The notes under the pieces are model-generated. The model worked only from the letters and a program-made list of their open reading frames with translations. It did no database searches and was not told the DNA's origin. Shown in pieces: positions 1-16,464 of a stretch of DNA of 32,000 nt. How positions within the stretch are numbered: position 1 is the first letter of the stretch; every line of letters starts with the position of its first letter. Source of the stretch: Acholeplasma laidlawii PG-8A (GTDB lineage: Bacteria > Bacillota_I > Bacilli_A > Acholeplasmatales > Acholeplasmataceae); contig NC_010163.1 of the NCBI RefSeq assembly GCF_000018785.1, positions 1,464,993-1,496,992 of the forward strand, read 5' to 3'. A program made the translations under genes and the position numbers.

Positions 1-923
1 GCCTTGATGAAATCATCAAGTTCGTCCCAACTATTTAATGCTGCACCACTTGCTTTTGCATGTCCGCCACCATTAAATAAGTTAGCAACTTTATCAATGT
101 CTGGTCCACTTGAACGTAATCTTACACGTACTAAGTCACCATCTTCTATGAATATAGCCCAAACATCAAATCCTTTAATACCTGATAGCATGTTCACTAC
201 TGAACTTGCTTCTTCATATGTAAGGTTAAATTCTTGTCTAATTTTATCTGTAATCTTTAAATAAATAAATCCCTTGTCTGTCGTTACAAAGTTTTGGTAA
301 ACAAAACCTTTGAAACGTAGCATATCTAATGTTTCATTAGACATTGCACGGTCAATTTCTTCAACATCTGCACCTTTAGTTAATAACATACCAGCCATTT
401 GGTGCGTTAATTCGGATACACCACGATATTTAAATCTACCTGTATCTGTTAAGATACCTGTATACATTGCAACCGCACCTGGTTTTGTTACTTCAAATTC
501 TTTAACTTGTGTAGACATATATGCAATCATTTGAGCACAGGATGGGAAGTTTGTATCTACCCATTCTACATCACCATAACTATCTACTGGGATGTGGTGA
601 TCAATTTTAATAATTTCTTGACCTAACATATATTTTTGATTAGAAATTCTTAATTTGTTTGCTGTATCTACTACAATTGATAAACTATCTTGATAGAAAC
701 TATCTTCTAAATTAGATTCACCTACGATAATATCTGGTGTACCTACGAAACTTACAAAATCAGAAGTTTCACCTGTTACAAATACATCCTTTTCAGGGAA
801 TGCATTTTTAATGATGTTTTGTAACCCGAATTGCGCACCATAACAGTCACCATCTGGTCTCACATGTCCATAAATTATAATTCTTTGGTATTTTTTAATT
901 TTCTTTAATATTTCTTTAAACAT
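1..923 (-). CDS. DHH/DHHA1-family phosphoesterase (NrnA-like), 3' end runs off the left edge of the window
   Basis: Absent from the ORF track because no stop lies in the window. Hand translation from ATG 923-921 gives MFKEILKKIKKYQRIIIYGHVRPDGDCYGAQFGLQNIIKNAFPEKDVFVTGE. Further on come VVDTA, IKIDHHIPVD (DHH motif, nt ~585-600) and NGGGHAKASGA (DHHA1 GGGH motif, nt ~45-75). The frame stayed open in every segment I translated, down to nt 3. Confidence 0.8.
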   Translation of the reverse strand, partial: MFKEILKKIKKYQRIIIYGHVRPDGDCYGAQFGLQNIIKNAFPEKDVFVTGETSDFVSFVGTPDIIVGESNLEDSFYQDSLSIVVDTANKLRISNQKYMLGQEIIKIDHHIPVDSYGDVEWVDTNFPSCAQMIAYMSTQVKEFEVTKPGAVAMYTGILTDTGRFKYRGVSELTHQMAGMLLTKGADVEEIDRAMSNETLDMLRFKGFVYQNFVTTDKGFIYLKITDKIRQEFNLTYEEASSVVNMLSGIKGFDVWAIFIEDGDLVRVRLRSSGPDIDKVANLFNGGGHAKASGAALNSWDELDDFIK

Positions 924-1860
924 TACTTTCTACCATCCTTTCATCAAAACATTGTACGACCTCTAATGCTTGTTCCCAGCTATGAAGTGTTGCGCCACAT
1001 GCATTAGCATGACCACCACCACCAAATTTTTTAGCAATGTCTACAATTGAGACGTCTTTACTTCTAAATTCACCAATGATTTCGCCTTTTTCGTTTTCAC
1101 TGAAATTTGCCCAAATACGCACTTCTTTAATACCAGCCATAATGTTTACCGTACCACGGGAAACATCTTGGAAGGTTAAACCTGATTCGCTAATTGATTT
1201 AAAATCATTAAATCTATACGCTACATTGTGATCTGATAAACTAAAACTTCTAAACTTTTCTTTAGCCATGCGTTTTGCAAGTGTTTCAAGTTGTTGAAAA
1301 TCACTTAAACTTTGTAGATCAATATCGTATTCCATTAAGCGAGCTACGACATCAAATGTATGCTTCGCATTTTGTTTGCTGATATATTGGAAACGACCAC
1401 TATCACCAACAATACCTGCATAAATATGAGATGCAGCCATATCGTTAAATCTTAGATTACCTTTAATCGCAATCTCGCCAATCATTTGACTACATGAAAT
1501 TAAATCTGGCCTATGGTAAAACAGATCAGGATTGATATTTGAGTCATTTCTATGATGATCTATATTAATAAGTGTTTTGCCTAATTTGTAACGTGTATCG
1601 GATATCAGCGCCTCTGCAGCTGTATCTAAAACAAATACGAGTGCGCCTTCATAGACTGAATCATCAATGACATCCATTGTATGTTCGTATGGGTATTGCT
1701 GTGTATCACCTACAACATAAACCGTTTTGTCTTTAAAGTTTTCTCTGATAATTTCTTTCAAACCGAGTTGTGATCCATAAGCATCTAGATCTGGTTGTTT
1801 GTGTCTGTGAATAATAATTGTTGAGTGGTTCTGTATTTCTTTTATAATTTGATTTTCCAT
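916..1860 (-). CDS. DHH/DHHA1-family phosphoesterase (NrnA-like paralog)
   Basis: 314-aa ORF with an ATG start. Motifs: IIIHRHKQPDLDAYGS, VLDTA, NIDHHRND (DHH), GGGGHANACGAT (DHHA1). The stop overlaps the start of the downstream paralog by 8 nt. Confidence 0.85.
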   Translation of the reverse strand: MENQIIKEIQNHSTIIIHRHKQPDLDAYGSQLGLKEIIRENFKDKTVYVVGDTQQYPYEHTMDVIDDSVYEGALVFVLDTAAEALISDTRYKLGKTLINIDHHRNDSNINPDLFYHRPDLISCSQMIGEIAIKGNLRFNDMAASHIYAGIVGDSGRFQYISKQNAKHTFDVVARLMEYDIDLQSLSDFQQLETLAKRMAKEKFRSFSLSDHNVAYRFNDFKSISESGLTFQDVSRGTVNIMAGIKEVRIWANFSENEKGEIIGEFRSKDVSIVDIAKKFGGGGHANACGATLHSWEQALEVVQCFDERMVESNV

Positions 1861-1932
1861 ATAATCCTACCTAAATTTAGAATAGTATAGTATAACATAT
1901 ATTGACTAATATTACGATATAAAAACGCTAAT

Positions 1933-1979
1933 TTGATAATAAAAACCACTTAATACTACAATTTAATTTTAAGTGGTTT
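1933..1979 (-). terminator. Rho-independent terminator after the nuclease gene
   Basis: 11-bp stem AAACCACTTAA (1943-1953) / TTAAGTGGTTT (1969-1979) with a 15-nt loop. On the minus-strand transcript it is followed by TTTTTATTATC. It lies 25 nt after the stop at 2004. Confidence 0.6.
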
Positions 1980-2003
1980 CATTGTGTTAAAATAATGTTA
2001 TTT

Positions 2004-3218
2004 TTACCAAGGTAATGGATTATGTGGTTCCCAAGTTGGGTTTGTCGTTGCTAATCCACCAGTACCATTGTTTGCTTGATAATTCCAGTCTGGAGATTTT
2101 TCTCCATCTGGATTTCCTGGATATCCATGCATAGCCCATCCTTGAGATCTTGCATATTCTTCTGCAAACTTTAAGAATGTTAGATATGGAACATCTTTGT
2201 ATGTTAAAAGGGTATCATAATTGCTAAATGTAAGAGGGACATCGTCTGATAAACCTTCTTTAACAATCAAGAATTGTGATAAGTGACCATTAATCCATAC
2301 TAAACCTAGATTACGTCCATTGCCCTCTTGTAGTGCATAGCCCGGAATAGATTGAACAATGATTTCTTTACTTGTTGCATCATTTAACAGATATTCTTTA
2401 TTGAATTTACTTGCAACATATCCCCATGGTGCAGCAATTACATAAGCACCATTAACTTCTGGTGTATCAATATAAAAGTATCTCATTGAACCACCAGGAT
2501 AGCCATTTCCAGCACGAAATGTTGCTGTATCACCATCAGCAATACTTTGAAGTGTAACAAGTGCAGTACCACCTCCACCTACAGTTGGGTTTGTAGGATC
2601 AACATAATCTAGATCATGATATCTTTCTTCTAGTCTTGGTCCTTCAAGTAATTGTTCTAATGTTTTAATTTGGTATAACTCATTTTTTAGATAATTAAAA
2701 GCTTCTGGTTTGTAACTAATAAATTTGTACGCTGTGTAGCTTGCATCTGGTTTAAATTCTGCAGGATTACCAAGTCTAATCATGGTTTGATTTCTTGAAA
2801 AATCTAGATCCATTCCAATGGTACCTACTAAGTCATGTGCCTTACCAGATACTCTTAATTCGATTGCGTCATTACCGTTAAACGGTAATGGACCATCTTC
2901 ATAAGTAAAATCAATTAGTGGTTTTACTGAAGATATGGTTTGTTGATTACTTCCAATAACGAAATATCCTTTGGCTGCGATTTCACCAGTTAATTTAATT
3001 TTTACAGATACTTCTTCAGAACCATTTGAATAAAAATATAATTCATGATTGCTTAACTTAACTACTTCTTCACTTGGGTTATATAATTCAAGTAAATTAT
3101 CGCTTTGATAAGCCGTTGTATATACTTTTGAAATCACTACATCAGATGTTGCGCTATCACATGATACAAGTATGAATGCTGCAAATACTAATATAAATAT
3201 ACTTAATTTTTTTAACAT
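2004..3218 (-). CDS. Surface lipoprotein nuclease: lamin-tail-like domain + staphylococcal (thermo)nuclease domain
   Basis: Signal peptide and lipobox MLKKLSIFILVFAAFILVSC. Residues ~25-135 show an LTD-like pattern (LLELYNPSEEVVKLS, NGNDAIELRVSG). Residues ~210-350 carry the SNase signature IADGDTATF, MRYFYIDTPE and GRNLGLVWING, so the Ca-binding and catalytic residues appear intact. SD AAGGGGAAG lies upstream. Confidence 0.85.
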   Translation of the reverse strand: MLKKLSIFILVFAAFILVSCDSATSDVVISKVYTTAYQSDNLLELYNPSEEVVKLSNHELYFYSNGSEEVSVKIKLTGEIAAKGYFVIGSNQQTISSVKPLIDFTYEDGPLPFNGNDAIELRVSGKAHDLVGTIGMDLDFSRNQTMIRLGNPAEFKPDASYTAYKFISYKPEAFNYLKNELYQIKTLEQLLEGPRLEERYHDLDYVDPTNPTVGGGGTALVTLQSIADGDTATFRAGNGYPGGSMRYFYIDTPEVNGAYVIAAPWGYVASKFNKEYLLNDATSKEIIVQSIPGYALQEGNGRNLGLVWINGHLSQFLIVKEGLSDDVPLTFSNYDTLLTYKDVPYLTFLKFAEEYARSQGWAMHGYPGNPDGEKSPDWNYQANNGTGGLATTNPTWEPHNPLPW

Positions 3219-3231
3219 ATATTGCTTCCCC

Positions 3232-4164
3232 TTACATTTCTTTGTTATGTTTTATTGCTTCTATTTCCTGTCTTTGAAGTTCTTTTTTTGCGCTACGCTT
3301 TAGTTTATATCTTGTATATACTTCTTTATGGAAAAAGATAAAGTATGTTAGTGGTATCACTACAAGTAGCAGTAATGAAATATTTATTAGATATAAACTG
3401 TTTAATTTGTTTAGTTTACTGATTAAAGTAGCATCATAATATAAATTTATATTATTTTTGATATCACTAAGCGATTCATCTGATAAAAATTTAATTTCAT
3501 CGGATGTAATAAACTTGATATCTCTTTGATAAGTGTTGCTAAATTTATCAGGGATTTGATTTACTAAATCAGAATTATATAAAGTGACTAACTCTCTACT
3601 AAAATAATTAATATCATCATATGCAATGTGAATGGATTCAAATGAAATAGTTGATTCCGCTTTTAGTCTATCAAAATTAATAAGCAATAACTTTGAAGTA
3701 TCATCATAGAGTGTGATGAAGGTTTCTTCAAATGTTTGTTTATTCGTTTGTCCAATAGTGATTTCTTGATTAAATTTGATAGTTGCACGAATTGTGCTAT
3801 AGTCATCTTCATCTTTTAACAGTGATGTATCTGTTATATTTAGATCCCTTATTAAGATAGCTAGAGAATGCTCATAGGATCTTAAATTTTCAGCAACTTT
3901 ATAAATGTATAGACCCACTTCATCTTCACCATCTATAAAATGTTGTTCATAAAGCGGCTCTTTAAAGATAATAGCATTGGTTCCATCACCTCTATTAGCA
4001 ACCAGTGTTGCAGCAAGTAACTTTACATTGTTATCTTCTACCTCACTTTGTAGTGATTGTAGAAACTCTACACGTTTTTGCGCTTCTGTATATAAAGAAA
4101 CCATGAATGTTGCCATACCAATAAAAATGATGTATAGAATTATAAAAAACCAGTTTTTTGTCAT
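3232..4164 (-). CDS. Bitopic membrane protein of unknown function (N- and C-terminal TM helices, basic C-terminal tail)
   Basis: 310-aa ORF with an ATG start, 13 nt upstream of the nuclease gene. TM1 is WFFIILYIIFIGMATFMVSLY; the C-terminal TM is LYLINISLLLLVVIPLTYFIFF, followed by a K/R/E-rich tail. I recognise no family. Confidence 0.65.
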   Translation of the reverse strand: MTKNWFFIILYIIFIGMATFMVSLYTEAQKRVEFLQSLQSEVEDNNVKLLAATLVANRGDGTNAIIFKEPLYEQHFIDGEDEVGLYIYKVAENLRSYEHSLAILIRDLNITDTSLLKDEDDYSTIRATIKFNQEITIGQTNKQTFEETFITLYDDTSKLLLINFDRLKAESTISFESIHIAYDDINYFSRELVTLYNSDLVNQIPDKFSNTYQRDIKFITSDEIKFLSDESLSDIKNNINLYYDATLISKLNKLNSLYLINISLLLLVVIPLTYFIFFHKEVYTRYKLKRSAKKELQRQEIEAIKHNKEM

Positions 4165-4202
4165 AGATTTATCCTTAAATGTAAGCTACTTAATGTCTTT
4201 TA

Positions 4203-4231
4203 ATTATATAATAAATTACGTATTTTTTCAA
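4203..4231 (-). promoter_or_regulatory. Sigma-70-type promoter for the membrane-protein/nuclease unit
   Basis: Minus strand reads TTGAAA (4231-4226), a 17-nt spacer, then TATAAT (4208-4203). It sits ~40 nt upstream of the ATG at 4164, with AGGA as the SD. Confidence 0.5.
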
Positions 4232-4276
4232 TTTATTATATGTTTTATAACTAATATGTTTGAATTTCTATATTTT

Positions 4277-4318
4277 AGAAAAGAAAAGCCTATGCTTCAT
4301 TCTTAAAGAAGCATAGGC
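4277..4318 (-). terminator. Rho-independent terminator ending the ABC-importer operon
   Basis: 11-bp GC-containing stem GCCTATGCTTC (4288-4298) / GAAGCATAGGC (4308-4318) with a 9-nt loop. The minus-strand transcript continues TTTTCTTTTCT. It lies 52 nt after the stop at 4370. Confidence 0.7.
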
Positions 4319-4369
4319 TCTAATTTTTTATCACTTTATACTTACTATATTACTATGAAATATAAATAA

Positions 4370-7123
4370 TTAATTAAGTACGTAAATCTTTAGGTTATCT
4401 ACACCAATAGCATAAGCTGTGTTTGAAGTTGATGATGCAGCTGGTGCTTCATATACTAATCTATATGTTCCGCCACCTGTAATTTCGATAGATACGTTTG
4501 TTAATGCGTCTTTAGTTAATTGACCAAATACGTTATCACCAACTGTTACCCAATTTTCACCTTCAAGTTTTTCAACTCTTACTGATGAACCTGCTAATCC
4601 TACAGTTTGATCAAAGTTATTTTGATTCCATGCAGCAAAGTCAAATTCTATCTTTGATGCGTTTGCATAAGCTGCTGCAGTTAAGTCGAATTCAACATAA
4701 GATAGTTTAAATGTAGAAATTGGTGCTAATACTAGGAATGCTGCACTGTCAGCCCAAGGAGCAAAAGTACTTGTGTTAATTTGTACTCTATCTTTGTCTA
4801 GTGTAAATGCATCACCATTTGTATTAGAGAATGCTAATGTTCCAGCCGCATAACCTGTAACAGGTGATGGACCAAAATCAAATGTGTAAGCTACAGTTTC
4901 AACTGCTGCTTCAGCTTTTACAGTGATTTCAAACACTTTAGTGTCTGTTGCTTCACCATTTGTTAAAGCTGCTGTTAATGTAACTACAGTATCAGCTGCT
5001 GGTTTAGTGTATGTACCATCGTTGCCTAAAACTTCTGGATGTGATGATGTCCATACTACAGTTGTACCGTTTGCTAGTGTAACAGGTAATGATAATGATT
5101 CTAGTGTTGTTGCCGGTAATTCTAATAATAGTTTGTCTAATGCTAATTCTTCTGCATCAGTTAAGATTGGTGATTCACCTTCAGTAACTTGAGCTGCAGC
5201 ATGAATACCAATTGCACCATTATTTGATCTCCAAGTTAATAAAGCATTAGTAAATGACACATAATCACCAACTTTTAAGCCCTTAATAAAGTCAGATGAA
5301 CCAACTAGTGGTTGTCTTGAATCCCAGTAGAATCTAATTGTCTTTAATGTTACTTCATCTTCTAAGATTAATTCAACGTTACCGTAATCATTAGCGATAA
5401 CTTCTTTTACCTTTAAGTTAGCAACTGAAACTAGATTTGATTGGAATGGTAATAGACTTTCTGCATCCCATAAAGTGATTGTTCTTAGGTCTGTAGCTTC
5501 TGGCATTGTACCATCTAATTCTAAATCAGTAACTTCTGGACTACCTAATTGAATTAATCCACTAAATACTGTTCTAGTACCAATGATTTGAACTTGTTTA
5601 CCAACTAATAATGCTAGGTCAGCTGCTGCCCCTACTGAAGCATATACAGTGATTGCACCAGTACCATCAGCGATAGAAATTTGTCTATGAGCGTTGTAAC
5701 CTAATACAGTACCAGTAATCATAAATTTATAAGTATTAACTGTAGCTTCTAAAACTTCTGCAATTGTAGATGGAGCAACTTCGCCCACTCTAATTGTGAA
5801 TTCTTTAGTAGCTGAAGCCTCGCCTAATGTTAATGTAGCAACTAATTTAACATCTTTTTGACCAGATGTTGGAAGTGTTACCTTACCATCAGCTAAGTTA
5901 ATTAATGCGTTGTTTGCATCTTCTGCATCTTTGAATGACCAAGCGATATTTACTTCATCAGATTTATTAGCTAATGTTAATGTTTGATCTGCTTTGTAAA
6001 CTTCAACTGGTAATTTAAGTGCGTTTTTAGCAACGTCAACTTTTTGTGATTCATTTAAGTTTGCAGTAATACCTGATGGTCCACCTACATAGTAAACAGC
6101 AAATGCTAAGTTATTTGATCTGTATGTATAAATCACTACATCCATTTCAACTTCAAAGCCTGCAAAACTACGTACGTAAGGGAAATCAGCTGTTCCGTAA
6201 TAGAACATAAAGCCGCTTGCAGGAACACCTGGTTCACCTAATACTAATGCAGATTTAGCTGCATCAATAATGTAAGTATTGTAGTTACCTGAATCGCCTT
6301 CAATCATGAAGATATTACCTTTAACAGTTGCATAAATTGGTTCAAAGTTTCCATCAGAAACAGCTGGATAATTATGTTCGCCTGCTGTTGTTAATTCACT
6401 GATCTTAGAATCAACACTGTTAACAGTTTCTTTAGTTGGATATTGTGGCGTTGCAGATGCTTTTTCAACACCTGTAGATTTCACTAATTCCCAAATACCG
6501 AAGTACCATTCTAAAGCACCAGTAACATCGTATACTTTACCAACTTCGAAAGTTGTTTGGCTGTTGAATAATTGAATAATACCTGTTCCATCATAACCAA
6601 AGTAAACATCACCTTTTGCAAAGATTGTTACATTTGGAATAGTTACAGTATATTCGCCACCATCATAAGCTTCATCTCTGATCGCTAGGATATCAGCAAT
6701 TGTTTCAATTTCGATTTCTTCAACTGTATTTTCTTTAATTGTTAATGTTTTTTCCCATTTCTTCTCTAAGATTTCATCAGAAATTTCTGATTTTAATTTT
6801 AAAGTAGCTGTGATTTTAACAGTTGCATCGCCTTGACCTTTAGCTGGACGGTTAACAGTTGCAGTAACTTCATTGTTAACAGCAGTTCCAAATGATACAA
6901 CACCTGGATTATCTGATGTCCATACAGCTTCGATCCCACCAGCAAGCATGCTTGGTACAACGAAGTTTGATGTAATATTAGATGGATCACTGATTAAAAT
7001 GTCCATACCTGCATGGGCTGTATCTAATTTAGCTATAGCCCCATCTTCCTTAGCTGTTGGTCCACAAGCCACTAGGACTAAACCAACAAGTAAGATTGCA
7101 ATAAAACTTAATATTTTTTTCAT
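4370..7123 (-). CDS. Large modular surface lipoprotein with three Ig-like repeat modules, OB-fold-like modules and a C-terminal beta-rich domain; no catalytic motif recognised
   Basis: Lipobox MKKILSFIAILLVGLVLVAC and SD AAGGAGAG. Three ~80-aa modules share the pattern LP..V.W.S.....V..(G)......V.LTA.L....A..K.F.I.V at aa ~45-130, 362-446 and 655-736. Between them are modules such as ITGTVLGYNAHRQISIADGTGAITVYAS..LLVGKQVQIIGTRTVFSGLIQL, which resemble the OB-folds of extracellular nucleases. Confidence 0.8.
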   Translation of the reverse strand: MKKILSFIAILLVGLVLVACGPTAKEDGAIAKLDTAHAGMDILISDPSNITSNFVVPSMLAGGIEAVWTSDNPGVVSFGTAVNNEVTATVNRPAKGQGDATVKITATLKLKSEISDEILEKKWEKTLTIKENTVEEIEIETIADILAIRDEAYDGGEYTVTIPNVTIFAKGDVYFGYDGTGIIQLFNSQTTFEVGKVYDVTGALEWYFGIWELVKSTGVEKASATPQYPTKETVNSVDSKISELTTAGEHNYPAVSDGNFEPIYATVKGNIFMIEGDSGNYNTYIIDAAKSALVLGEPGVPASGFMFYYGTADFPYVRSFAGFEVEMDVVIYTYRSNNLAFAVYYVGGPSGITANLNESQKVDVAKNALKLPVEVYKADQTLTLANKSDEVNIAWSFKDAEDANNALINLADGKVTLPTSGQKDVKLVATLTLGEASATKEFTIRVGEVAPSTIAEVLEATVNTYKFMITGTVLGYNAHRQISIADGTGAITVYASVGAAADLALLVGKQVQIIGTRTVFSGLIQLGSPEVTDLELDGTMPEATDLRTITLWDAESLLPFQSNLVSVANLKVKEVIANDYGNVELILEDEVTLKTIRFYWDSRQPLVGSSDFIKGLKVGDYVSFTNALLTWRSNNGAIGIHAAAQVTEGESPILTDAEELALDKLLLELPATTLESLSLPVTLANGTTVVWTSSHPEVLGNDGTYTKPAADTVVTLTAALTNGEATDTKVFEITVKAEAAVETVAYTFDFGPSPVTGYAAGTLAFSNTNGDAFTLDKDRVQINTSTFAPWADSAAFLVLAPISTFKLSYVEFDLTAAAYANASKIEFDFAAWNQNNFDQTVGLAGSSVRVEKLEGENWVTVGDNVFGQLTKDALTNVSIEITGGGTYRLVYEAPAASSTSNTAYAIGVDNLKIYVLN

Positions 7124-7166
7124 GTATTTTCTCTCCTTTTAGATTTTTGTAAATAGCATGAATAAA

Positions 7167-8624
7167 TCAATTGGTAATAAAGTTATAAGTGTTTTGGTAT
7201 TCTCTATCAATATATGTATTTAAATCTTCTGCACTTGTTGCTTTATAAGAGAATATTTTTACTAATAATGGACCAACTTCAGTTCTTGTTTTGGAACTTA
7301 AATTGAATACTGCCGAAGTAAAGAAGATGTCACCATTATTTCTAAACATATCAATTGCTTCTTTAACAAGTTTGTTTTGTGCTTCTGCTAATGTAGTTGG
7401 GTTTTCTTTAATACCTGCTACATACTTTGTCCATGTTTCTGTTTCATAAGCAGAATAACGGATTGGTGCATACCCTGAAGGGATAGCATACTCAGCTGTT
7501 TTCTCTGCTGAAATCATATATTTAGCAAATAACCAAGCAGCGATCATACGTTGTTCATTATCTTGTTTGAATAAGTTAATGTTAGGTCCTTGTTGAATTT
7601 GAGCACGTTCTTTACCTTCAAAGTGAGGAAGTGGTGCAACTCCAACGCGAACACCTTTATTAAATGATGATGCATCATATGCATATCTTGTACCACCAGT
7701 TGAACCTACATACATGTATAGTTTTTCACCATTCTTGAAGATGTCAGATGTAAATGCTTCAGCATTTAATGTTCTAGTTAACATTAGGTTTTTATCTACT
7801 TTATCTTTAAAGTATTTGATCATTTCTTTAGATTGAGCATTGTTAAATAATACTTCGCCACGTCCGGTTTCTGCATTATAACCTGTGTATGGAGCACCCC
7901 ATTGTTTTGATCCAGTGATAAACATGTTATCTTCTGAGTCATAACCAAATGGAATAGCTTCTGGTTCACGGGATTTAATATCTTGTGCAATCTCAAATAG
8001 TGTTTCCCATGTTAGACCAGCTTCTACAAGTTCTGTATATGTTTTACCATTTAATGAATGTTGGTCAAAGTATGTCTTGTTATAGAAGAAACCTTCACTT
8101 GATTTTGTAAATGGTAAAGATAATATTGTACCTTCATTATCATATGAAGTACCTTCAGCCCATAGAGATGGTAAGAAGTCTTCTAATTCCTCTTCAGAGT
8201 ATCCTAGTGTTGGATGGCTAATGAAGTTGTTTAATGCTAGAGGTGCTTTAGCAATCGCGTAACGAGAAATGTGGTCTGGATAACTCTCTGCAATATCTGG
8301 TGTGTTACCAGCAGGAATTGATAAACTCACTTTCTCAGCTAATTGATTGTAGTCTGCTCCAGCTTTTGTTAGTACAACAGTAATATTTGGATACATTTCT
8401 TTAAATTCTGCAACCCACTTGGTCACCATTTCTTCATTTGCTGCACCCATTCTGTGCCAGAAATGAATTGTTACTGGTGTTTCGGTATCAAACTCTGTAT
8501 CTGGTGATAATTCATACCACTCAACAAGTTTTCCACCACCACCTTGTCCACGTTCACCACCAATACAAGCTACTAAGGTGAATGTGAAAGCAACCATGAT
8601 AATGCTTAGTAATATTTTTTTCAT
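7167..8624 (-). CDS. ABC transporter substrate-binding lipoprotein (family-1 / CUT1-type solute-binding protein)
   Basis: Lipobox MKKILLSIIMVAFTFTLVAC, then a Gly-rich linker GGERGQGGGGK. At 485 aa its overall pattern is typical of sugar-type SBPs. SD AAGGAG. It sits in an operon with the two permeases. Confidence 0.85.
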   Translation of the reverse strand: MKKILLSIIMVAFTFTLVACIGGERGQGGGGKLVEWYELSPDTEFDTETPVTIHFWHRMGAANEEMVTKWVAEFKEMYPNITVVLTKAGADYNQLAEKVSLSIPAGNTPDIAESYPDHISRYAIAKAPLALNNFISHPTLGYSEEELEDFLPSLWAEGTSYDNEGTILSLPFTKSSEGFFYNKTYFDQHSLNGKTYTELVEAGLTWETLFEIAQDIKSREPEAIPFGYDSEDNMFITGSKQWGAPYTGYNAETGRGEVLFNNAQSKEMIKYFKDKVDKNLMLTRTLNAEAFTSDIFKNGEKLYMYVGSTGGTRYAYDASSFNKGVRVGVAPLPHFEGKERAQIQQGPNINLFKQDNEQRMIAAWLFAKYMISAEKTAEYAIPSGYAPIRYSAYETETWTKYVAGIKENPTTLAEAQNKLVKEAIDMFRNNGDIFFTSAVFNLSSKTRTEVGPLLVKIFSYKATSAEDLNTYIDREYQNTYNFITN

Positions 8625-8655
8625 GTCTTTCTCCTTTTAAAAATTAATTTGGCTT

Positions 8656-9591
8656 TTAACCTTTTACTCCCGATCTAGAAACACCACTCATAATATACTT
8701 TCTAAAGAAAATAAATAAGAGTAATAATGGTACTGTAACAATTACTGTTGCAGCCATTTGATAGTTTAATAATGGGCGACCTACACCTGATTCTGCTTGG
8801 TCAATAAATGAACCTCTTAACCATGTAGTTACTAAACGGTATTCCTCGTGAGCAACTAAGTTTGGCCAAATATAAGCATTCCATGTTCCCATTAACTTTA
8901 AGATAACAATAGTAATGATAGATGATTTAGCCATAGGTACCATAACACGTACTAAGTATTTGAAATCACCACAACCATCTACTTTTGCTGCATAATATAA
9001 TTCGTTAGGTATTTGCTTAAATGTCTGTCTTAATAAATAAATATGGAAGATTGAGACCATAAATGGCACAATCATCGCTAAGTAGGAGCCAACGCCTTGG
9101 GCATCTACCCACCCAAATTTGGCTACTGTTACAAAGTTAGAAATAACCATCATTTCGCCAGGGATCATCATTGTTGCAAGTAAGATCGTGAAGATTAAGT
9201 CTTTACCTTTAAAGTTTAATCTTGCAAGCGCGAACGCAACGATAATCGAGAATATTGTTCCACCAACAGTTGAGAATACTGCGACTACAAGTGTGTTGGT
9301 TAAATATCTAGGGAAATTAATGTTGGTTGTGCTTGATGTATAAAAGAATACGTTGATATAGTTTTTAGGTGAGAAATCTTTAGGGAATAAACTCACGTTA
9401 AGGGAGTTTAATACCTCATCAGTGCCTTGTAACGATACGTTTAACATCCAATAGAATGGGATGATTACTATAATTGACATAATTGCCAAGAATAAGTATA
9501 TACCGAATTTACCTAAGAAGGTTGCTGATTTTTGAGCTTTAAGTTTTTGGTTGACTTTATAATCAACTTTAAAATTTGCGTTTGCTGTCAT
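8656..9591 (-). CDS. ABC transporter permease (MalG/UgpE-like)
   Basis: 311 aa with about six hydrophobic helices. EAA-loop region YYAAKVDGCGDFKYLVRVMVPMAKSS. SD GGAGGA. Confidence 0.9.
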   Translation of the reverse strand: MTANANFKVDYKVNQKLKAQKSATFLGKFGIYLFLAIMSIIVIIPFYWMLNVSLQGTDEVLNSLNVSLFPKDFSPKNYINVFFYTSSTTNINFPRYLTNTLVVAVFSTVGGTIFSIIVAFALARLNFKGKDLIFTILLATMMIPGEMMVISNFVTVAKFGWVDAQGVGSYLAMIVPFMVSIFHIYLLRQTFKQIPNELYYAAKVDGCGDFKYLVRVMVPMAKSSIITIVILKLMGTWNAYIWPNLVAHEEYRLVTTWLRGSFIDQAESGVGRPLLNYQMAATVIVTVPLLLLFIFFRKYIMSGVSRSGVKG

Positions 9592-9602
9592 TTTTGTCCT
9601 CC

Positions 9603-10526
9603 TTAGTAATGAACACGTTTTTTACTTACGTATAAGTTCACAATTGTAAATACTAATATGATTAAGAATAGTATTACCGCACCTGCTGCACCTCTAGAAT
9701 AGTAAGATATACCATTTCCATCTAGACCATATTGGTTGATTTTGTCATAAACATAAGCAACCGATGTCCATCTTTCAGCTGGTAATCTAGCGCCAGTACC
9801 TGCAACCGCAAATACAGATTCATACGCTTTAAATGCACCAATGAATGAAGTAATTAAAATATAACTAATTAATGGTGATAATAAAGGGATTGTAATTCTT
9901 GTTAGTACTCTACGTTTAGGTGTACCATCAATTTTAGCTGCATCATAGTATTGTTTAGAAATATTTTGTAAACCACCGATAAATACTAAGATTTTAAATG
10001 GCAATGCACTCCAAATTGTATAAATTAATACTACAAACATCCAGTTATTATAAGTAGCTGTAGGCCCAATCCAGTCCGTTGTCATTTCAAATAATGTATT
10101 GATAAGACCTTCTGCAACCACACCTTGTGTTAATGGGTGTGAGAACATTACAGCGAATACCATACCAATAGCTAGTGTATTGGTTACATATGGAATGAAG
10201 AATATTGTTTGGAATATTCTTTGTAGTGGCTTAATTGAATTTAATGCTACAGCAATAAGTATTGCTAATATAGTTGAAATTGGAACCGATACAAAGACGA
10301 GTAACATCGTATTTTTTAAAGCACCAATGTAATATGGGTCTTTAAATAATGCCATGTATGCTGCAGCGTCAAAGTATGTACCAAAGTCATCAGCAATGGA
10401 GTTATAGCCGGAGAAAAATGATATTAAGACTGTCTTGATCAAAGGATAGAACGTAAACAGTGATAATAAGATCAACGGCAAGGCTATATACAACCACGCT
10501 TTATAATCTTTTTTATTTTCTAACAT
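9603..10526 (-). CDS. ABC transporter permease (MalF/UgpA-like)
   Basis: 307 aa. EAA-loop YYDAAKIDGTPKRRVLTRITIPLLSP. Its start overlaps the ATPase stop by 1 nt (TAATG). Confidence 0.9.
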   Translation of the reverse strand: MLENKKDYKAWLYIALPLILLSLFTFYPLIKTVLISFFSGYNSIADDFGTYFDAAAYMALFKDPYYIGALKNTMLLVFVSVPISTILAILIAVALNSIKPLQRIFQTIFFIPYVTNTLAIGMVFAVMFSHPLTQGVVAEGLINTLFEMTTDWIGPTATYNNWMFVVLIYTIWSALPFKILVFIGGLQNISKQYYDAAKIDGTPKRRVLTRITIPLLSPLISYILITSFIGAFKAYESVFAVAGTGARLPAERWTSVAYVYDKINQYGLDGNGISYYSRGAAGAVILFLIILVFTIVNLYVSKKRVHY

Positions 10527-12127
10527 TACGCTAATCTCCTACCACTAACCTTATCAAAAATATAAGTTTTATTTGGTTTAAGATTGAACTTAATTTCTTT
10601 CTTGTTTTTTAAGTCTAAATTTTCATTTGTTAAAATGATTCTCATAGATTCAGCTTGTAGGTTTTTATGTTTAGAAACTAATGCTAAGTCTCTACCAATG
10701 GTTTCTACGAATAGTGGTTCAACTGATAATGAACCATTATCTGATAGTTCATAACCTTCCGGTCTTACCCCTACAACCACTTCACCTTTAAGATCTTTAT
10801 CTAACTTCTTAGATTCGAAGACAACTTTTCCGTCAATTAAAACTTTTTGGTTTTCAATTGTTGCGTTATAAACACTAATAGGAGGTGTTCCTAAGAATTT
10901 AGCACTAAATAGATTACCTGGTTCGTTATAAACTTCTTGTGGAACTCCAGTTTGTTGTTCTTCACCGAAGTTCATCAACATAATTTCATCAGAAATTGAC
11001 ATTGCTTCTTCTTGGTCATGGGTAACGAATACGGTTGTAATACCAGTTTCTCTTTGGATACGTTTGATTTCTTCTCTTGTTTGAAGTCTTAATCTAGCGT
11101 CTAAGTTTGAAAGTGGTTCGTCAAGTAGTAAAACTTTAGGTTTTTTAACGAGTGCTCTAGCAATCGCAACACGTTGTTGTTGACCACCTGATAATTGAGC
11201 AGGTGTTTTATCTAGTTGATCTTCAATACCAACTAATTTCGCCATTGCTACAGCATCATCATTCATTTGTTTCTTGTAGTTGATTGCTTTAGCTTTTTTA
11301 ACAATACTTACAGACTTAGGAATGATTGTTTCAATTTCAACTTCATATTTAGCTTGAAATTCATTTTTATTTGTATAAGTTGAACTTAATTCTTTTTTAA
11401 TTGCTTTTGCTTTAGTTTCAAAGTCTTTTTCAACTTCGGCATAAGTTGTATTAATAATGTCTTTTAATTCTTTTAAATTTGCTGGTGTAATCTTAGCTTT
11501 TTCTTCTAAATATTTGTTCTCAAATTCTTTAATTTTAGCATTTAAGTCTAATTTAAGATTTGCTAAGTTATTTTTTAGCGCTTGTTTTAATTCTGGTGTT
11601 TTAACTTGTACTTCTTTAAATTCTTTTTCGAATGCTAGTTTAGCACTTTGGTATTGTGCTTTTAACTCAGATTCATGTCTTCTATATTTGTTTTTTAAAG
11701 ATTCTGATTTATCTTCATACTCATATAAAATTTTAGCTTCAGTTGGTGTTTCAATCAAATGTGCTTTCTTATATGCTTCTTCAATTGATCTCTTACGAAT
11801 GTTCATATTTTCTAAAGGAAATAGTATGTTCTTTCGTACAGTCATATGAGGATATAATGCATAGTTTTGGAAAACTAATCCAATACCTCTTTTTTCTGGT
11901 GATAATTCAGTAACGTCTTCGTCACCAAAAAAGATTCTACCTTCAGTTGGGTAAAGTAATCCGGAAATCATATATAATGTTGTTGATTTTCCACATCCTG
12001 ATGGACCTAGAAGACCAACTAGTTTGCCTGACGGAATCACAATATCTAAATTAGATACAGCTCTAGTTTCAGTCTTTGCTTTTAAATCTGTAAATACCTT
12101 GGTTAAACCCTCGAGTTTAATTTCCAT
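10526..12127 (-). CDS. MalK/UgpC-like ABC ATPase with a ~170-aa Lys/Glu-rich insertion and a C-terminal regulatory/TOBE-like domain
   Basis: Motifs: Walker [11 protein letters not shown]-loop [13 protein letters not shown], signature [10 protein letters not shown], Walker [13 protein letters not shown]-loop VTHD. The ORF-track start at 12139 is a GTG overlapping the SD AAGGAG. I prefer ATG 12127 ([12 protein letters not shown]), but the start is not certain. Confidence 0.9.
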
Positions 12128-12176
12128 TGTGTTGTACACTCCTTTTGATTTATAACAATATTAAAAAAAAGCAAAA

Positions 12177-12287
12177 CTACACACCCGTGTGTTTTACGCA
12201 ATAAATAGGTTTAGATAAAAAAATGAAGTCTGTTCGTGTTGTCTCATACATATTAGCATTCTTTGAAGCAGCACAATAAAATATCAT
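12177..12287 (-). CDS. Candidate 36-codon upstream/leader ORF in the ABC-operon leader
   Basis: Strong SD GGAGGT (12299-12294) lies 6 nt before ATG 12287. The product is MIFYCAASKNANMYETTRTDFIFLSKPIYCVKHTGV. The TAG stop (12179-12177) lies inside a hairpin that precedes a T-run. I recognise no homology. Confidence 0.3.
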   Translation of the reverse strand: MIFYCAASKNANMYETTRTDFIFLSKPIYCVKHTGV

Positions 12288-12309
12288 TTTAATACCTCCG
12301 ACATTTGTT

Positions 12310-12338
12310 ATTATACTTCATACGCCAAATAATTTCAA
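12310..12338 (-). promoter_or_regulatory. Sigma-70-type promoter (proximal) of the ABC-importer operon
   Basis: Minus strand reads TTGAAA (12338-12333), a 17-nt spacer, then TATAAT (12315-12310). Confidence 0.55.
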
Positions 12339-12401
12339 GAATTCAAGACCTATTTGCGTAAACAAAGGGTATATTTTTTAGTCATATTTTTCCGGATTTT
12401 A

Positions 12402-12415
12402 GGTAAACGCTTACA
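12402..12415 (-). promoter_or_regulatory. cre-like / LacI-family-type operator palindrome
   Basis: Minus strand reads A-TGTAAGCGTTTACC. It fits the cre pattern WTGNAANCGNWNNCW at every position except the last. Confidence 0.35.
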
Positions 12416-12547
12416 TCTTTGATGTAATAATATACCCAATTGACTAAGTATTTATACTCATGTTTGAACACCCAAAGATCCAATAACCTATCCTTTATTG
12501 GGTTGAAGTGCCATAGATATTTATATTCGTTTTGTCCATGACTATTC

Positions 12548-12576
12548 ATTGTATCACACTTTATATTTGTTGTATA
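12548..12576 (-). promoter_or_regulatory. Possible distal promoter with extended -10
   Basis: Minus strand reads TATACA (12576-12571), a 17-nt spacer, then TG-A-TACAAT (12556-12548). The decamer GTGATACAAT is the same one that forms the extended -10 of the asnS T-box promoter. Confidence 0.3.
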
Positions 12577-12583
12577 GTAGAAA

Positions 12584-12600
12584 ATGTAAAACGTTTACAT
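12584..12600. repeat. Perfect 7-nt inverted repeat ATGTAAA-ACG-TTTACAT (operator-like, or a weak terminator of the carotenoid operon)
   Basis: Read directly from the sequence. It lies 23 nt downstream of the stop at 12623 and 8 nt upstream of the candidate distal -35. On the minus-strand transcript it is followed by TTTTCT. The left half resembles a cre half-site (TGTAAACG). Confidence 0.35.
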
Positions 12601-12622
12601 TCTTATCTATAAGGACATATAT

Positions 12623-13417
12623 TTAGATGACCAACAATAGGTAAGTTACAACCGAAATCGTAAGGACCATAATGAAATTTACAGTACTGTTATTAATAAA
12701 CTTTTTACCTGATATAAGTATAAATTGCTCAGTATTTGATATCATTTCCGCTATTTTTCCACTTTTTATGTCTTTGTATTTTGCTTGTAAAAAGACGCCT
12801 AAATAACTATCTAAAATACTTCCCAAAAACCCTGAAATTGTAATAATTACACTAAATTCTGTGAGTAAATTTAGACTAAATTCTTCTGTTAAAAAGTATA
12901 GTGCAGAAAACATTAAACTAATCACTAACGCGCCTAAAAATGAAGCAACTACACCAAGCATACTCACAGCACCGGATAGACCTTTTTCCATAGCCTTAAA
13001 GGTGAGTATAGAGTAGGTTTTACCTTTACTTAAACTACCAATTTCAGAAGCCCAAGTGTCGGCTGTGGATGCTGCAATAGCAACCACAGCGACAACAAGA
13101 TATGTTAAATCGTGTAAAAAATAATAGAGTGTTAAGAAAAATAAGGAAACGATAGAGTTAGAAATCACTTGAATATAGTCTCTACCATACTTTTCTTTTT
13201 CGTTTTTATTAAACTTTGAAATAATACTTGAACTAATAAAGAAGAAGATAAGTATACTCCAAGCAATAAAGGTTCCGAAAACATAAAATAGCATACCAAC
13301 GATACTCGCAGTGATAAAACCACTCACTGTCAGTGATCTTTTTTTATATGCAACAAATGCTACCGATAAACTTAGTAATAGACCGATGATGTATGGTACA
13401 AACATATGCTCATTCAT
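12623..13417 (-). CDS. DUF92/TMEM19-family integral membrane protein (VTE6-like; candidate prenyl-phosphate kinase)
   Basis: 264 aa and polytopic. Family-typical motifs: AASTADTWASEIGSLSKG, GLSGAVSMLG, GSILDSYLGVFLQ. It is the last gene of the carotenoid operon. The SD AGGAG is only 1 nt from ATG 13417, so the in-frame ATG at 13405 (MFVPY) may be the real start. Confidence 0.75.
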   Translation of the reverse strand: MNEHMFVPYIIGLLLSLSVAFVAYKKRSLTVSGFITASIVGMLFYVFGTFIAWSILIFFFISSSIISKFNKNEKEKYGRDYIQVISNSIVSLFFLTLYYFLHDLTYLVVAVVAIAASTADTWASEIGSLSKGKTYSILTFKAMEKGLSGAVSMLGVVASFLGALVISLMFSALYFLTEEFSLNLLTEFSVIITISGFLGSILDSYLGVFLQAKYKDIKSGKIAEMISNTEQFILISGKKFINNSTVNFIMVLTISVVTYLLLVI

Positions 13418-13432
13418 GCTCCTTAGTGTACA

Positions 13433-15780: not shown

Positions 15781-15795
15781 TTCAAATCCTCTTTC

Positions 15796-16455: not shown

Positions 16456-16464
16456 AGACACCTC

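Follow-up and report, generated by a model that had tools for sequence, protein, structure and literature searches.

A block of genes in Acholeplasma laidlawii places a predicted surface nuclease beside an ABC importer of the CUT1 type, which raises the question of what the importer carries and whether the nuclease supplies it. An earlier note, made from the DNA sequence alone, had proposed a chain of receptor, nuclease and importer for scavenging nucleic-acid-derived nutrients, and the in silico evidence, foremost comparative genomics, all fits that proposal. Nucleic-acid scavenging and import in the general sense is probable. With somewhat less confidence, we favor a fuller reading in which the block is a foraging system that would combine surface cleavage, capture, import and cytoplasmic finishing. 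The idea has already been published for Mycoplasma (PMC3585158, PMC4045577) and Izemoplasmatales (PMC8289736), and the locus is not new in kind.

Organization of the locus

The window (the whole stretch of 32,000 nucleotides that was analyzed) is the last 32 kb of the single-contig 1,496,992-bp genome. All ORFs of the locus stay open with genetic code table 11, in which TGA is a stop, and every feature given below lies on the minus strand. The genes form the two adjacent units that had been described from the sequence, with the gene order, both promoters and both hairpin terminators confirmed. One unit encodes an ATPase, two permeases, a binding lipoprotein and a 917-aa lipoprotein; the other encodes a membrane protein and a lipoprotein with LTD and SNase domains. 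The three lipoproteins (binding, 917-aa and 404-aa) all carry a lipobox Cys at residue 20. The promoters of the ABC unit (12310–12338) and the nuclease unit (4203–4231) both read TTGAAA-17-TATAAT and, at 11/12 each, are the top two sigma-70 matches in 13.5 kb. The ABC unit ends in an intrinsic terminator with a 14-bp stem (4277–4318; −21.8 kcal/mol, z −5.1) and the nuclease unit in a second one (1933–1979; −14.1 kcal/mol, z −3.8), each followed by a U-run. An automated terminator scan picked up neither of these AT-rich hairpins; RNA folding supports both. The leader 5′ of the ATPase gene (12177–12287) reads as a 36-codon uORF with a GGAGGT Shine–Dalgarno sequence, ending in a small hairpin and U-run. 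Folding gives a weak hairpin (−10.5 kcal/mol, z −1.6), and the leader has no Rfam match at E ≤ 1.

Domain and family calls were made by Pfam and NCBIfam profile searches. The ATPase (10526–12139, 537 aa) is of the MalK/UgpC type (ABC_tran 7e-37 in two stretches; UgpC subfamily 5e-95), and its start is probably the ATG at 12127, 11 nt after AGGAG, which would give 533 aa. About 170 aa, rich in Lys and Glu, are inserted between the Q-loop and LSGGQ; the Q-loop-to-signature distance is 227 aa versus 54–58 aa in orthologues without the insert. The permeases are UgpA/MalF-like (9603–10526, 307 aa; BPD_transp_1 1.5e-16, UgpA 4.7e-21) and UgpE/MalG-like (8656–9591, 311 aa; BPD_transp_1 2.5e-17, UgpE 7.4e-29), the latter with Mycoplasma-type orthologues at E 1e-25 to 1e-43.

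A predicted surface nuclease and its putative membrane partner

The 404-aa lipoprotein (2004–3218) consists of an LTD (residues 22–133), an SNase domain (about 220–330) and a Trp/Pro-rich C-terminal extension. Its reading as an LTD and SNase lipoprotein is borne out by the profile scores (LTD 6e-11; SNase 9e-05, 23.3 bits against a cut-off of 21), and no other protein of the genome matches SNase. Its N-terminal signal/LTD region matches residues 4–163 of Shewanella ExeM (NF033680), an LTD-bearing extracellular nuclease, at 6.5e-16, although the catalytic domain is SNase rather than the ExeM type and the total score is 57 bits against a cut-off of 1300. Equivalents of SNase D21, R35, D40, T41, E43 and R87 are present in the alignment, so the catalytic and Ca2+ residues are kept. 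SNase-family enzymes require Ca2+ and yield 3′-phosphorylated mono- and oligonucleotides. External plasmid DNA is degraded by live A. laidlawii cells, and EDTA blocks this degradation (PMC10805103). With its catalytic residues in place, the membrane-anchored lipoprotein would be expected to cut extracellular DNA or RNA.

The 310-aa membrane protein (3232–4164) has an N-terminal transmembrane helix, a beta-sandwich ectodomain, a C-terminal transmembrane helix and a basic tail (AF2 pLDDT 89.5). It has no Pfam or NCBIfam family match and no fold match in the PDB (best E 0.07). The protein adjoins the nuclease consistently in Acholeplasma-type loci and may be its accessory.

Conservation of the gene neighborhood

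The seven genes of the two units are kept together in Acholeplasmatales genomes, the 917-aa protein at 35–45% identity. The same gene set also occurs in permuted orders, namely SBP-big-nuclease-266aa-nrnA-nrnA and SBP-SNase-big-nrnA-nrnA, where SBP is the substrate-binding protein. A genome scan for orthologous loci matched at least 600 stretches, of which 564 were confirmed, and the best 80 loci were analyzed. Among these best 80 of 564, the SNase gene directly follows the SBP gene in 60/63 gut Clostridia loci and in all loci from Sphaerochaetaceae (3/3) and uncultured Bacilli/Mollicutes (3/3). The 64 Clostridia loci of the same set encode a large relative of the 917-aa protein in 48 cases (hhalign probability 98.5%, E 2e-15), a tandem NrnA pair in 28 and SurE in 26; further neighbors across the 80 loci are an NT5C–guanylate kinase fusion, a barnase-type RNase, Endonuclease_1 and an HD hydrolase. 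Mycoplasma-type genomes, including one of 580,076 bp, hold an SNase-like gene, an ATPase of 577–711 aa, two permeases and NrnA. The linkage of nuclease and ABC genes, which the earlier note had held would count against its proposal if confined to a few genomes, is thus conserved far beyond that.

Directly downstream of the nuclease unit lies a pair of genes (3–1860) that the earlier note had not included and that bears on the imported cargo. The first encodes a cytoplasmic DHH/DHHA1 NrnA-like phosphoesterase of 314 aa (916–1860; DHH 1.5e-15, DHHA1 4e-12, NrnA NF053633 6e-60); the second, recognized by its ORF and motifs, encodes another such enzyme whose C-terminus is cut by the window edge (3–923). 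They are the only stand-alone DHH/DHHA1 genes of the genome and form a separate transcription unit here; in Clostridia loci the pair is encoded on the opposite strand. Across three phyla, NrnA-type genes are again found as a tandem pair in the vicinity of orthologous ABC loci. The M. bovis pair Mbov_0328/0327 turns short oligonucleotides into mononucleotides, and these tandem DHH genes are essential only with eDNA as nucleotide source, a defect rescued by NMPs or nucleosides; the authors read them as recycling enzymes, without a link to an importer (PMC7373297). Growth of M. bovis is also supported by small polynucleotides derived from eDNA (PMC6895004). By analogy with the M. bovis genetics, and given the neighborhood, the Acholeplasma pair may break down short oligonucleotides after import, giving mononucleotides that can be salvaged. 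Its position could partly reflect housekeeping, since one of the two may, like its M. bovis counterpart, serve the cell as a housekeeping phosphodiesterase for c-di-AMP (PMC7373297).

The binding lipoprotein and the cargo

The substrate-binding lipoprotein (7167–8624, 485 aa, SBP_bac_8 2e-44) belongs to the UgpB branch of CUT1. Its family profile, compared with the PDB, matches UgpB and the T. thermophilus 7c0* series, which we take to be the U3G-binding protein, at 1e-31 to 1e-29, and sugar binders at 1e-17 or weaker. The nearest solved relatives (E. coli and marine UgpB for G3P/G1P, M. tuberculosis UgpB for GPC and the T. thermophilus protein for the dinucleotide U3G) bind phosphate esters or phosphodiesters, the U3G ligand being given as described in PMC12718374, which cites Chandravanshi et al. 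(2021). The phosphate-contacting Ser/Tyr tetrad of the branch has its counterparts in S175, S308, Y385 and Y115, as mapped by profile alignments rather than structure, and all 86 orthologues keep these four residues (100%). Conversely, the two Trp residues that clamp glycerol-3-phosphate are absent, with conserved Y228/E231 in their place. Identity to the branch is low, and full-length matches are obtained with the family profile only. Across the 86 orthologues, from three phyla, 86 positions are at least 90% conserved, and a group of polar residues (K174, E177, D229, N233, T247, Q345 and R447) is invariant and particular to the family. Distant homology to the Mycoplasma P68-family lipoproteins is detected by hhalign (probability 94%, E 1e-7); a member of that family, MslA, binds ss and ds DNA according to PMC4045577, which cites Masukagami (2013).

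Membership of the UgpB branch, retention of the phosphate-contacting Ser/Tyr and loss of the glycerol clamp therefore favor nucleotides or short oligonucleotides over sugars, glycerol-3-phosphate and nucleosides, and make the protein a candidate nucleotide or oligonucleotide binder on sequence grounds. Its relatives and conserved residues suggest that it would capture phosphate-bearing fragments (mononucleotides, dinucleotides and short oligonucleotides) and hand them to the two-permease/MalK-type importer. We give an even chance to a cargo of phosphorylated nucleotides or short oligonucleotides, as opposed to nucleosides.

The same foraging system might instead import dephosphorylated products (nucleosides, nucleobases or deoxyribose), which we consider unlikely. 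As a rule, bacteria take up nucleosides and not nucleotides, uncharged sugars are the typical CUT1 cargo, and "probable nucleoside or nucleobase transporters" were inferred from Izemoplasmatales neighborhoods (Wasmund et al., 2021; PMC8289736). Against this, the binding protein falls in the phosphate-ester branch, no surface phosphatase or 5′-nucleotidase is encoded in the locus (Pfam, NCBIfam), a separate Bmp/PnrA-type nucleoside-binding protein is encoded elsewhere in the genome, and import of nucleosides would not call for the cytoplasmic enzymes linked to these loci (NrnA, SurE and NT5C).

The 917-aa lipoprotein

The nucleic-acid polymer or its fragments may be held at the surface by the 917-aa multi-OB lipoprotein (4370–7123), the weakest step of the proposed scheme. 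The protein is built of two successive aBig_2–OB–OB-like sets, a third aBig_2 and a C-terminal jelly roll (Pfam aBig_2 ×3; AF2 model, pLDDT 90). Foldseek matches of the model include AbnA, Teb1 AB, HIN-200/AIM2/IFI16, POT1 and MAM/ephrin-LBD. Two parts of the earlier description stand: domain searches, the AF2 model and Foldseek found no catalytic domain, and the OB folds look like DNA-binding ones. The receptor role, however, is only putative, because the protein is acidic (pI 4.4) and so is every domain (pI 4.0–4.9), despite the OB folds. Binding of nucleic acid by this protein is accordingly given slightly less than an even chance.

These features bear on a different reading, in which the importer takes sugars or oligosaccharides, the 917-aa partner binds glycans and the nuclease has a different job, for instance in remodeling eDNA/biofilm or in defense. 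The CUT1 architecture and the acidic OB domains would suit it; glycosidases, too, contain aBig_2 and jelly-roll modules, aBig_2 being known from the arabinanase AbnA, the jelly roll resembles carbohydrate-binding modules (one relative matches CBM96), and one relative locus has galactose genes downstream. Yet there is no glycoside hydrolase in the locus or among the recurrent neighbor families of the best 80 of 564 loci, and in the PDB profile comparison sugar binders fall behind phosphate-ester binders by 14 orders of magnitude or more. Moreover, 22 of 50 relatives of the 917-aa protein carry the nuclease-associated LTD in place of the jelly roll (PF01336 matches in 6, BOF in 2). We regard sugar import as highly improbable.

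Comparison with known systems

The Mycoplasma counterpart of the proposed foraging system was published as a "putative nucleotide transporter operon" (PMC3585158, PMC4045577), with the same model of a polynucleotide that is bound, cut and imported. It comprises a P80/P68/MslA lipoprotein, an SNase lipoprotein (MAG_5040, mhp379, MPN133 or MG186) and a UgpC/A/E-like ABC transporter (PMC3585158, PMC4045577, PMC9740415). Permeases and ATPase are orthologous to those of Acholeplasma, and an NrnA-type gene adjoins the ABC genes in several lineages. What the earlier note said of Mycoplasma holds in the genomes compared: an SNase-like gene adjoins the ABC genes, and the ATPase is unusually long. Its extra length again falls between Q-loop and LSGGQ, although in inserts without detectable sequence similarity to the Acholeplasma one. 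The Acholeplasma SBP differs in being a compact, canonical protein of 485 aa, compared with the 700–800-aa P68-family lipoprotein, with homology at the profile level only; the Acholeplasma locus adds an LTD to the nuclease, along with the multi-OB lipoprotein and the 310-aa membrane protein. Uptake of nucleotides by M. mycoides has been described without an assigned gene (PMC6609329). The least probable reading is an ordinary importer of the Ugp type, for glycerol-3-phosphate or glycerophosphodiesters, beside a functionally unlinked nuclease. Such an importer is the usual annotation of the Mycoplasma orthologues (PMC3178575 draws MPN134-136 as a putative G3P transporter), and the best NCBIfam names (UgpB/UgpA/UgpE/UgpC) and UgpB's place among the top PDB relatives would agree with it. 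Against it stand NCBIfam scores far under the equivalog cut-offs (46 bits versus 411 for the SBP), the missing Trp clamp, the lack of linked GlpQ or glycerol-metabolism genes and the SNase gene directly downstream of the SBP gene in 60/63 Clostridia loci among the best 80.

Similar to the proposed foraging block are also the "DNA-degradation loci" of Candidatus Izemoplasmatales, which combine extracellular nuclease genes, an ABC transporter, "3′-5′ nucleases" and a large protein that is secreted and bears both nucleic-acid-binding and lamin-tail domains; the authors noted, too, that the best matches of the ABC binding subunit adjoin nucleases (Wasmund et al., 2021, Nat Microbiol; PMC8289736). 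The LTD nuclease and large lipoprotein, presented earlier as extra features, are therefore extra relative to Mycoplasma only. The Acholeplasma block differs in having a single nuclease, placed in a separate unit with the 310-aa membrane protein, a large protein with a jelly roll instead of a nuclease or LTD domain, the ATPase insert of about 170 aa, and neither phosphate transporter nor phosphohydrolase. Genomes that are probably of this class show the order ATPase-permease-permease-SBP-SNase-big aBig_2/LTD protein-nrnA-nrnA, with an SBP that matches that of the window at E 1e-60.

Relation to described loci

As far as sequence analysis goes, the proposal of the earlier note that a receptor, a nuclease and an importer form a chain for nucleic-acid scavenging is supported, and the locus reads as one more example of a nucleic-acid foraging system of a kind described before. 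The scavenging idea has been published for such loci, and the Acholeplasma copy is not new in kind. Co-transcription was shown for P80, the SNase MAG_5040 and the adjoining ABC genes, and import of nucleotide precursors was proposed (Cacciotto et al., PMC3585158), a proposal repeated in later reviews (PMC9740415; PMC12115388). The M. bovis genes have been named a 'putative nucleotide transporter operon' and interpreted with a bind-cut-import model (Sharma et al., PMC4045577); the P80 homologue MslA is cited there as binding both single- and double-stranded DNA (Masukagami et al., 2013, as cited in PMC4045577). Small polynucleotides derived from extracellular DNA (eDNA) feed M. bovis (Zhu et al., PMC6895004), and M. 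bovis requires its tandem DHH genes only when fed on eDNA, with rescue by NMPs or nucleosides (Zhu et al., PMC7373297). The 'DNA-degradation loci' of Izemoplasmatales contain genes for nucleases and 3'-5' nucleases, for ABC transporters and for a large nucleic-acid-binding/lamin-tail protein (Wasmund et al., PMC8289736). In A. laidlawii, live cells degrade external plasmid DNA, and this activity is EDTA-sensitive (PMC10805103). Compared with the known loci, the one in the window has local traits: its lamin-tail domain (LTD)–SNase protein is encoded in a unit of its own with a 310-aa membrane protein, its multi-OB lipoprotein is non-catalytic and ends in a jelly roll, and its ATPase carries an insert at the Mycoplasma site.

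Organization of the locus

The window is the final 32 kb of a single-contig genome of 1,496,992 bp. TGA serves as a stop codon and every gene is intact under translation table 11; table 4 was dropped, since it lengthens only spurious frames. The ABC unit, on the minus strand, encodes an ATPase (10526-12139, with a likelier ATG start at 12127), two UgpA/UgpE-like permeases (9603-10526 and 8656-9591), a substrate-binding lipoprotein (SBP; 7167-8624) and a 917-aa lipoprotein (4370-7123), after which a hairpin terminator and a second promoter follow. The nuclease unit, on the same strand, begins with the 310-aa membrane protein (3232-4164) and continues with a 404-aa LTD–SNase lipoprotein (2004-3218) and a second terminator, immediately downstream of which lie two NrnA-type DHH/DHHA1 genes (916-1860 and 3-923). 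Both promoters proposed in the earlier note are the best sigma-70 matches within 13.5 kb, and both proposed terminators fold (-21.8 kcal/mol, z -5.1, and -14.1 kcal/mol, z -3.8). A consensus terminator scan missed the two terminators because their stems are AT-rich, and folding was used in its place.

Surface proteins

The reading of the 404-aa lipoprotein as a nuclease with a lamin-tail domain is borne out by domain searches, which find LTD (6e-11) with an ExeM-like N-terminal region and SNase (PF00565; 9e-05, 23.3 bits) over the Pfam gathering cut-off of 21. In the alignment, the Ca2+ ligands and catalytic residues of SNase are kept (equivalents of D21, R35, D40, T41, E43 and R87), and the equivalent of Y85 is Asn. 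The gene follows the ABC unit at a distance of 1.2 kb, an adjacency repeated in relatives. Its partner in the unit, the 310-aa protein, is predicted to span the membrane with two helices and to carry a beta-sandwich ectodomain (AF2 pLDDT 89.5, pTM 0.78) and evolves fast (19-36% identity among Acholeplasma-type loci). It matches no Pfam or NCBIfam family and its model has no significant fold relative in the PDB, so no function is assigned to it.

The 917-aa lipoprotein was described from its sequence as modular and without a visible catalytic domain; domain searches accordingly give three aBig_2 domains and nothing catalytic. A model built with an alignment of 50 relatives (pLDDT 90) predicts a lipid anchor, two successive sets of aBig_2, OB barrel and second beta domain, a third aBig_2 and a C-terminal jelly roll. 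In Foldseek searches, the model matches the aBig_2-bearing arabinanase AbnA, its barrels match the tandem OB folds of Teb1, HIN-200 proteins (AIM2, IFI16, p204 with dsDNA) and POT1, and its C-terminus matches MAM and ephrin-receptor ligand-binding domains. For Teb1 AB, HIN-200 and POT1 the Foldseek probability is 1.0, and the target TM-scores are 0.24-0.43. Among the 50 relatives, PF01336, a nucleic-acid-binding OB family, is matched by six and BOF by two, and a lamin-tail domain replaces the jelly roll in 22. Every domain of the 917-aa protein is acidic (pI 4.0-4.9), which counts against a simple DNA-binding role.

The C-terminal module itself (window 4370-4905, residues 740-917) is swapped between lineages when set against its relatives (P0010-P0056): the window protein has a MAM/ephrin-LBD-like jelly roll, and 22 of 50 relatives have a lamin-tail domain.

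Conservation of the gene set

The tandem NrnA genes, unmentioned in the earlier note, are the genome's sole stand-alone DHH/DHHA1 genes. They match the NrnA profile NF053633 with an E-value of 6e-60 and 202.8 bits, below the cut-off of 350, and the DHH and GGGH motifs are present. By analogy, one of the two NrnA-like paralogues may be a DhhP-type cyclic-dinucleotide phosphodiesterase (cf. PMC7373297). The seven genes of the ABC and nuclease units, the large lipoprotein being only 35-45% identical, are kept together in Acholeplasmatales genomes. In a more distant lineage, whose ATPase lacks the insert, consecutive genes encode the SBP, the large protein, the LTD–SNase, a membrane protein of 266 aa and two NrnA proteins, and another family of the same class carries an ATPase, permeases, SBP, SNase, a large aBig_2/LTD protein and two NrnA genes.

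A profile of the SBP family, scanned over one genome per species, matched at least 600 stretches, and 564 were confirmed as relatives. Neighbours were analyzed at the best 80 loci, mostly from gut Clostridia and also from Sphaerochaetaceae and uncultured Bacilli. In these 80 loci, whose genomes are related to one another and whose counts are not independent, an SNase gene directly follows the SBP gene in 60 of 63 Clostridia loci and in all three Sphaerochaetaceae loci. With the same reservation, a large relative of the 917-aa protein follows SBP/SNase in 48 of 64 Clostridia loci (hhalign 98.5%, E 2e-15), an RDD-family membrane protein lies upstream in 55/64, and a tandem NrnA pair (28/64) or SurE (26/64) lies within 10 kb; a fusion of NT5C and guanylate kinase is found at 14 loci. 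Genes for a barnase-type RNase, Endonuclease I and an HD hydrolase are occasional neighbours, and no glycoside hydrolase family recurs among the neighbours of the best 80 loci. The synteny comparison thereby extends the nuclease/ABC linkage of the earlier note to Acholeplasmatales, Clostridia and Sphaerochaetaceae. The same gene set occurs in differing orders in three phyla, a classical signature of functional coupling.

Several minor observations were made among these loci. In the 55 Clostridia loci that have it (among the relatives' loci L017-L086), the RDD-family protein (~260 aa) is encoded by the first operon gene, upstream of the ATPase; it has no Acholeplasma counterpart. Two Clostridia neighbour families, F6 and F19, are large opposite-strand ORFs found where F3 was expected; they are unrelated to the 917-aa family and may be antisense ORF artefacts of crude gene calling. 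One contig (L011, CAMBSI010000002.1) is assigned to a Staphylococcus epidermidis MAG, yet its locus is of the Acholeplasma type and its SBP shares 62% identity with that of the window; the contig is probably mis-binned or mislabelled.

The importer and its Mycoplasma-type counterparts

The CUT1-type importer set is complete, with an SBP_bac_1/8 lipoprotein, two BPD_transp_1 permeases and a MalK/UgpC-type ATPase. Domain searches agree with the assignments made from sequence, giving a UgpC/MalK-like ATPase, UgpA/UgpE-like permeases and, for the binding protein, SBP_bac_8 (2e-44). In the ATPase, the ABC domain is divided in two stretches and the C-terminal regulatory domain gives a weak OB_MalK match (E 0.0045). 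The ATPase had been called long, and its extra length, like that of the Mycoplasma types, lies between the Q-loop and LSGGQ, where the window protein has a Lys/Glu-rich, helical insert (window 11270-11790, residues ~120-290). The stretch from Q-loop to LSGGQ spans 227 aa in the window ATPase. The insert is carried by the A. laidlawii-type clade (ATPases of 524-544 aa), and longer inserts occupy the same site in all Mycoplasma-type orthologues (577-711 aa; eight ATPases compared), in which the stretch is 256-351 aa where both motifs were found. ATPases of other Acholeplasmataceae, of a second Bacilli family and of Clostridia have no insert. By blastp, the inserts are related within the Acholeplasma group and within the Mycoplasma group, and no match between the groups is better than E 0.3. 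The two kinds of insert share the site alone, and no detectable sequence similarity points to a common origin.

With a window permease as query, one locus is found per genome that reads TGA as Trp (E 1e-25 to 1e-43). This Mycoplasma-type locus includes an SNase-like gene and the gene of a long ATPase, which upholds the parallel drawn earlier with Mycoplasma. For instance, in a genome of 580,076 bp a P68-family lipoprotein is encoded four ORFs upstream, and the order continues with an SNase-like protein (250 aa), the ATPase (585 aa), the two permeases, an NrnA-like protein and two very large proteins. Other TGA=Trp lineages have a P68 lipoprotein, an ATPase of 650-711 aa, permeases and sometimes two NrnA genes. 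Profile comparison by hhalign of the SBP family with five P68-family proteins (probability 94%, E 1e-7, 219 columns) suggests a distant homology between the two. An SBP of the type found in the relative's locus L003 matches NF045826 at 2e-9; the window SBP does not match this profile at E<=0.01.

One TGA=Trp group has an SBP-like protein of 605 aa and an NrnA ahead of the ATPase and, after the permeases, a ComEC-type metallo-beta-lactamase protein, not an SNase. The ComEC/Rec2-like gene lies at 10635-11717 in locus L122, 10909-12060 in L123 and 10287-11414 in L124; the NrnA gene between the SBP-like lipoprotein and the ATPase is present in L122 and L123, not in L124. In these genomes the importer may have recruited the ComEC/Rec2-like protein as another nuclease.

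The binding lipoprotein and its cargo

The worthwhile question for the locus is the cargo, which is directly testable with its compact, standard-code binding protein. Many genomes, those of minimal-genome models and gut Clostridia among them, have the transporter family annotated as importing sugar or glycerol phosphate, and a literature search found no paper proving its cargo. Searched against solved structures, the family profile matches glycerol-phosphate-binding UgpB proteins best (1e-31 to 1e-30), the Thermus 7c0* series at 1e-30 to 1e-29, M. tuberculosis UgpB, a glycerophosphocholine (GPC) binder, at 1e-20, and sugar binders from 1e-17 on. We take the 7c0* entries to be the T. thermophilus dinucleotide binder. 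Besides UgpB and the GPC binder, the branch contains a T. thermophilus protein whose ligand is the dinucleotide uridylyl-3'-5'-phosphoguanosine; all its members strictly conserve two phosphate-holding Tyr and two such Ser, and the Trp pair that clamps glycerol is confined to UgpB (PMC12718374). Unlike the sn-glycerol-3-phosphate binding protein UgpB, the window SBP lacks the Trp clamp, the pair aligning with Y228 and E231, both conserved across 86 orthologues, and it scores 46 bits against an equivalog cut-off of 411. In profile alignments, its S175, S308 and Y385 (and Y115 or Y92) fall on the phosphate-holding Ser and Tyr of the branch.

The 86 orthologues come from Acholeplasmatales, a second Bacilli family (f4), Clostridia and Sphaerochaetaceae. 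Their overall identity is low (~31-35%), yet 86 positions are at least 90% conserved across phyla, so that one ligand class is likely; K174, S175, E177, D229, N233, T247, S308, Q345, Y385 and R447 are 100% conserved. This shared ligand probably carries phosphate.

Homologues of the binding subunit adjoin nucleases elsewhere, and transport of nucleosides or bases has been guessed (Wasmund et al., PMC8289736). Our preferred reading is that the cargo would be phosphate-bearing nucleotides or short oligonucleotides, to which we give about an even chance. Intact nucleotides or short oligonucleotides are favoured over nucleosides because NrnA-type nanoRNases and SurE, a 5'/3'-nucleotidase, are the cytoplasmic enzymes found in linkage, because SNase products bear 3'-phosphates, because the genome encodes a separate Bmp-type nucleoside-binding protein elsewhere, and because the locus has no surface phosphatase.

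The usual view of bacteria is that they take up nucleosides or bases and not nucleotides. The transporter family could be the missing nucleotide/oligonucleotide importer for phosphate-bearing SNase products, a proposal that we hold tentatively, at slightly under an even chance. The importer would take up 3'-mononucleotides, dinucleotides and short oligonucleotides intact, and the linked NrnA pair, together with SurE in Clostridia, would finish them in the cytoplasm. Uptake of intact nucleotides was measured decades ago in a mycoplasma, M. mycoides, in the 1980s, and no gene has been assigned to it (Breuer et al., PMC6609329). If the proposal is true, that uptake would gain a gene, the genes annotated 'UgpACE' in M. 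genitalium and M. pneumoniae would be re-annotated, and a new CUT1 substrate class would be common to Mollicutes, gut Clostridia and Sphaerochaetaceae. Proof of the cargo would correct annotations, close a gap in metabolic models of minimal cells and account for the use of extracellular DNA and RNA as food by wall-less pathogens and gut anaerobes. A. laidlawii is a convenient model, being cultivable, with a standard genetic code, a compact binding protein and genetic tools (transformation and Tn5; PMC10805103).

The leader of the ABC operon and the upstream genes

A leader of ~180 nt (window 12140-12338) precedes the ATPase gene. It contains an upstream ORF of 36 codons with strong initiation (GGAGGT, ATG at 12287), whose stop sits inside a small, weak hairpin (-10.5 kcal/mol, z -1.6) with a U-run after it. 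An Rfam scan of window 1-14000 at E<=1 gave zero matches, so the leader contains no known riboswitch. Translation-coupled attenuation through the upstream ORF and hairpin is possible. Directly upstream, window 12623-16461 holds a block of carotenoid genes (DUF92, phytoene-synthase-like, desaturase and membrane-kinase-like) unrelated to the locus.
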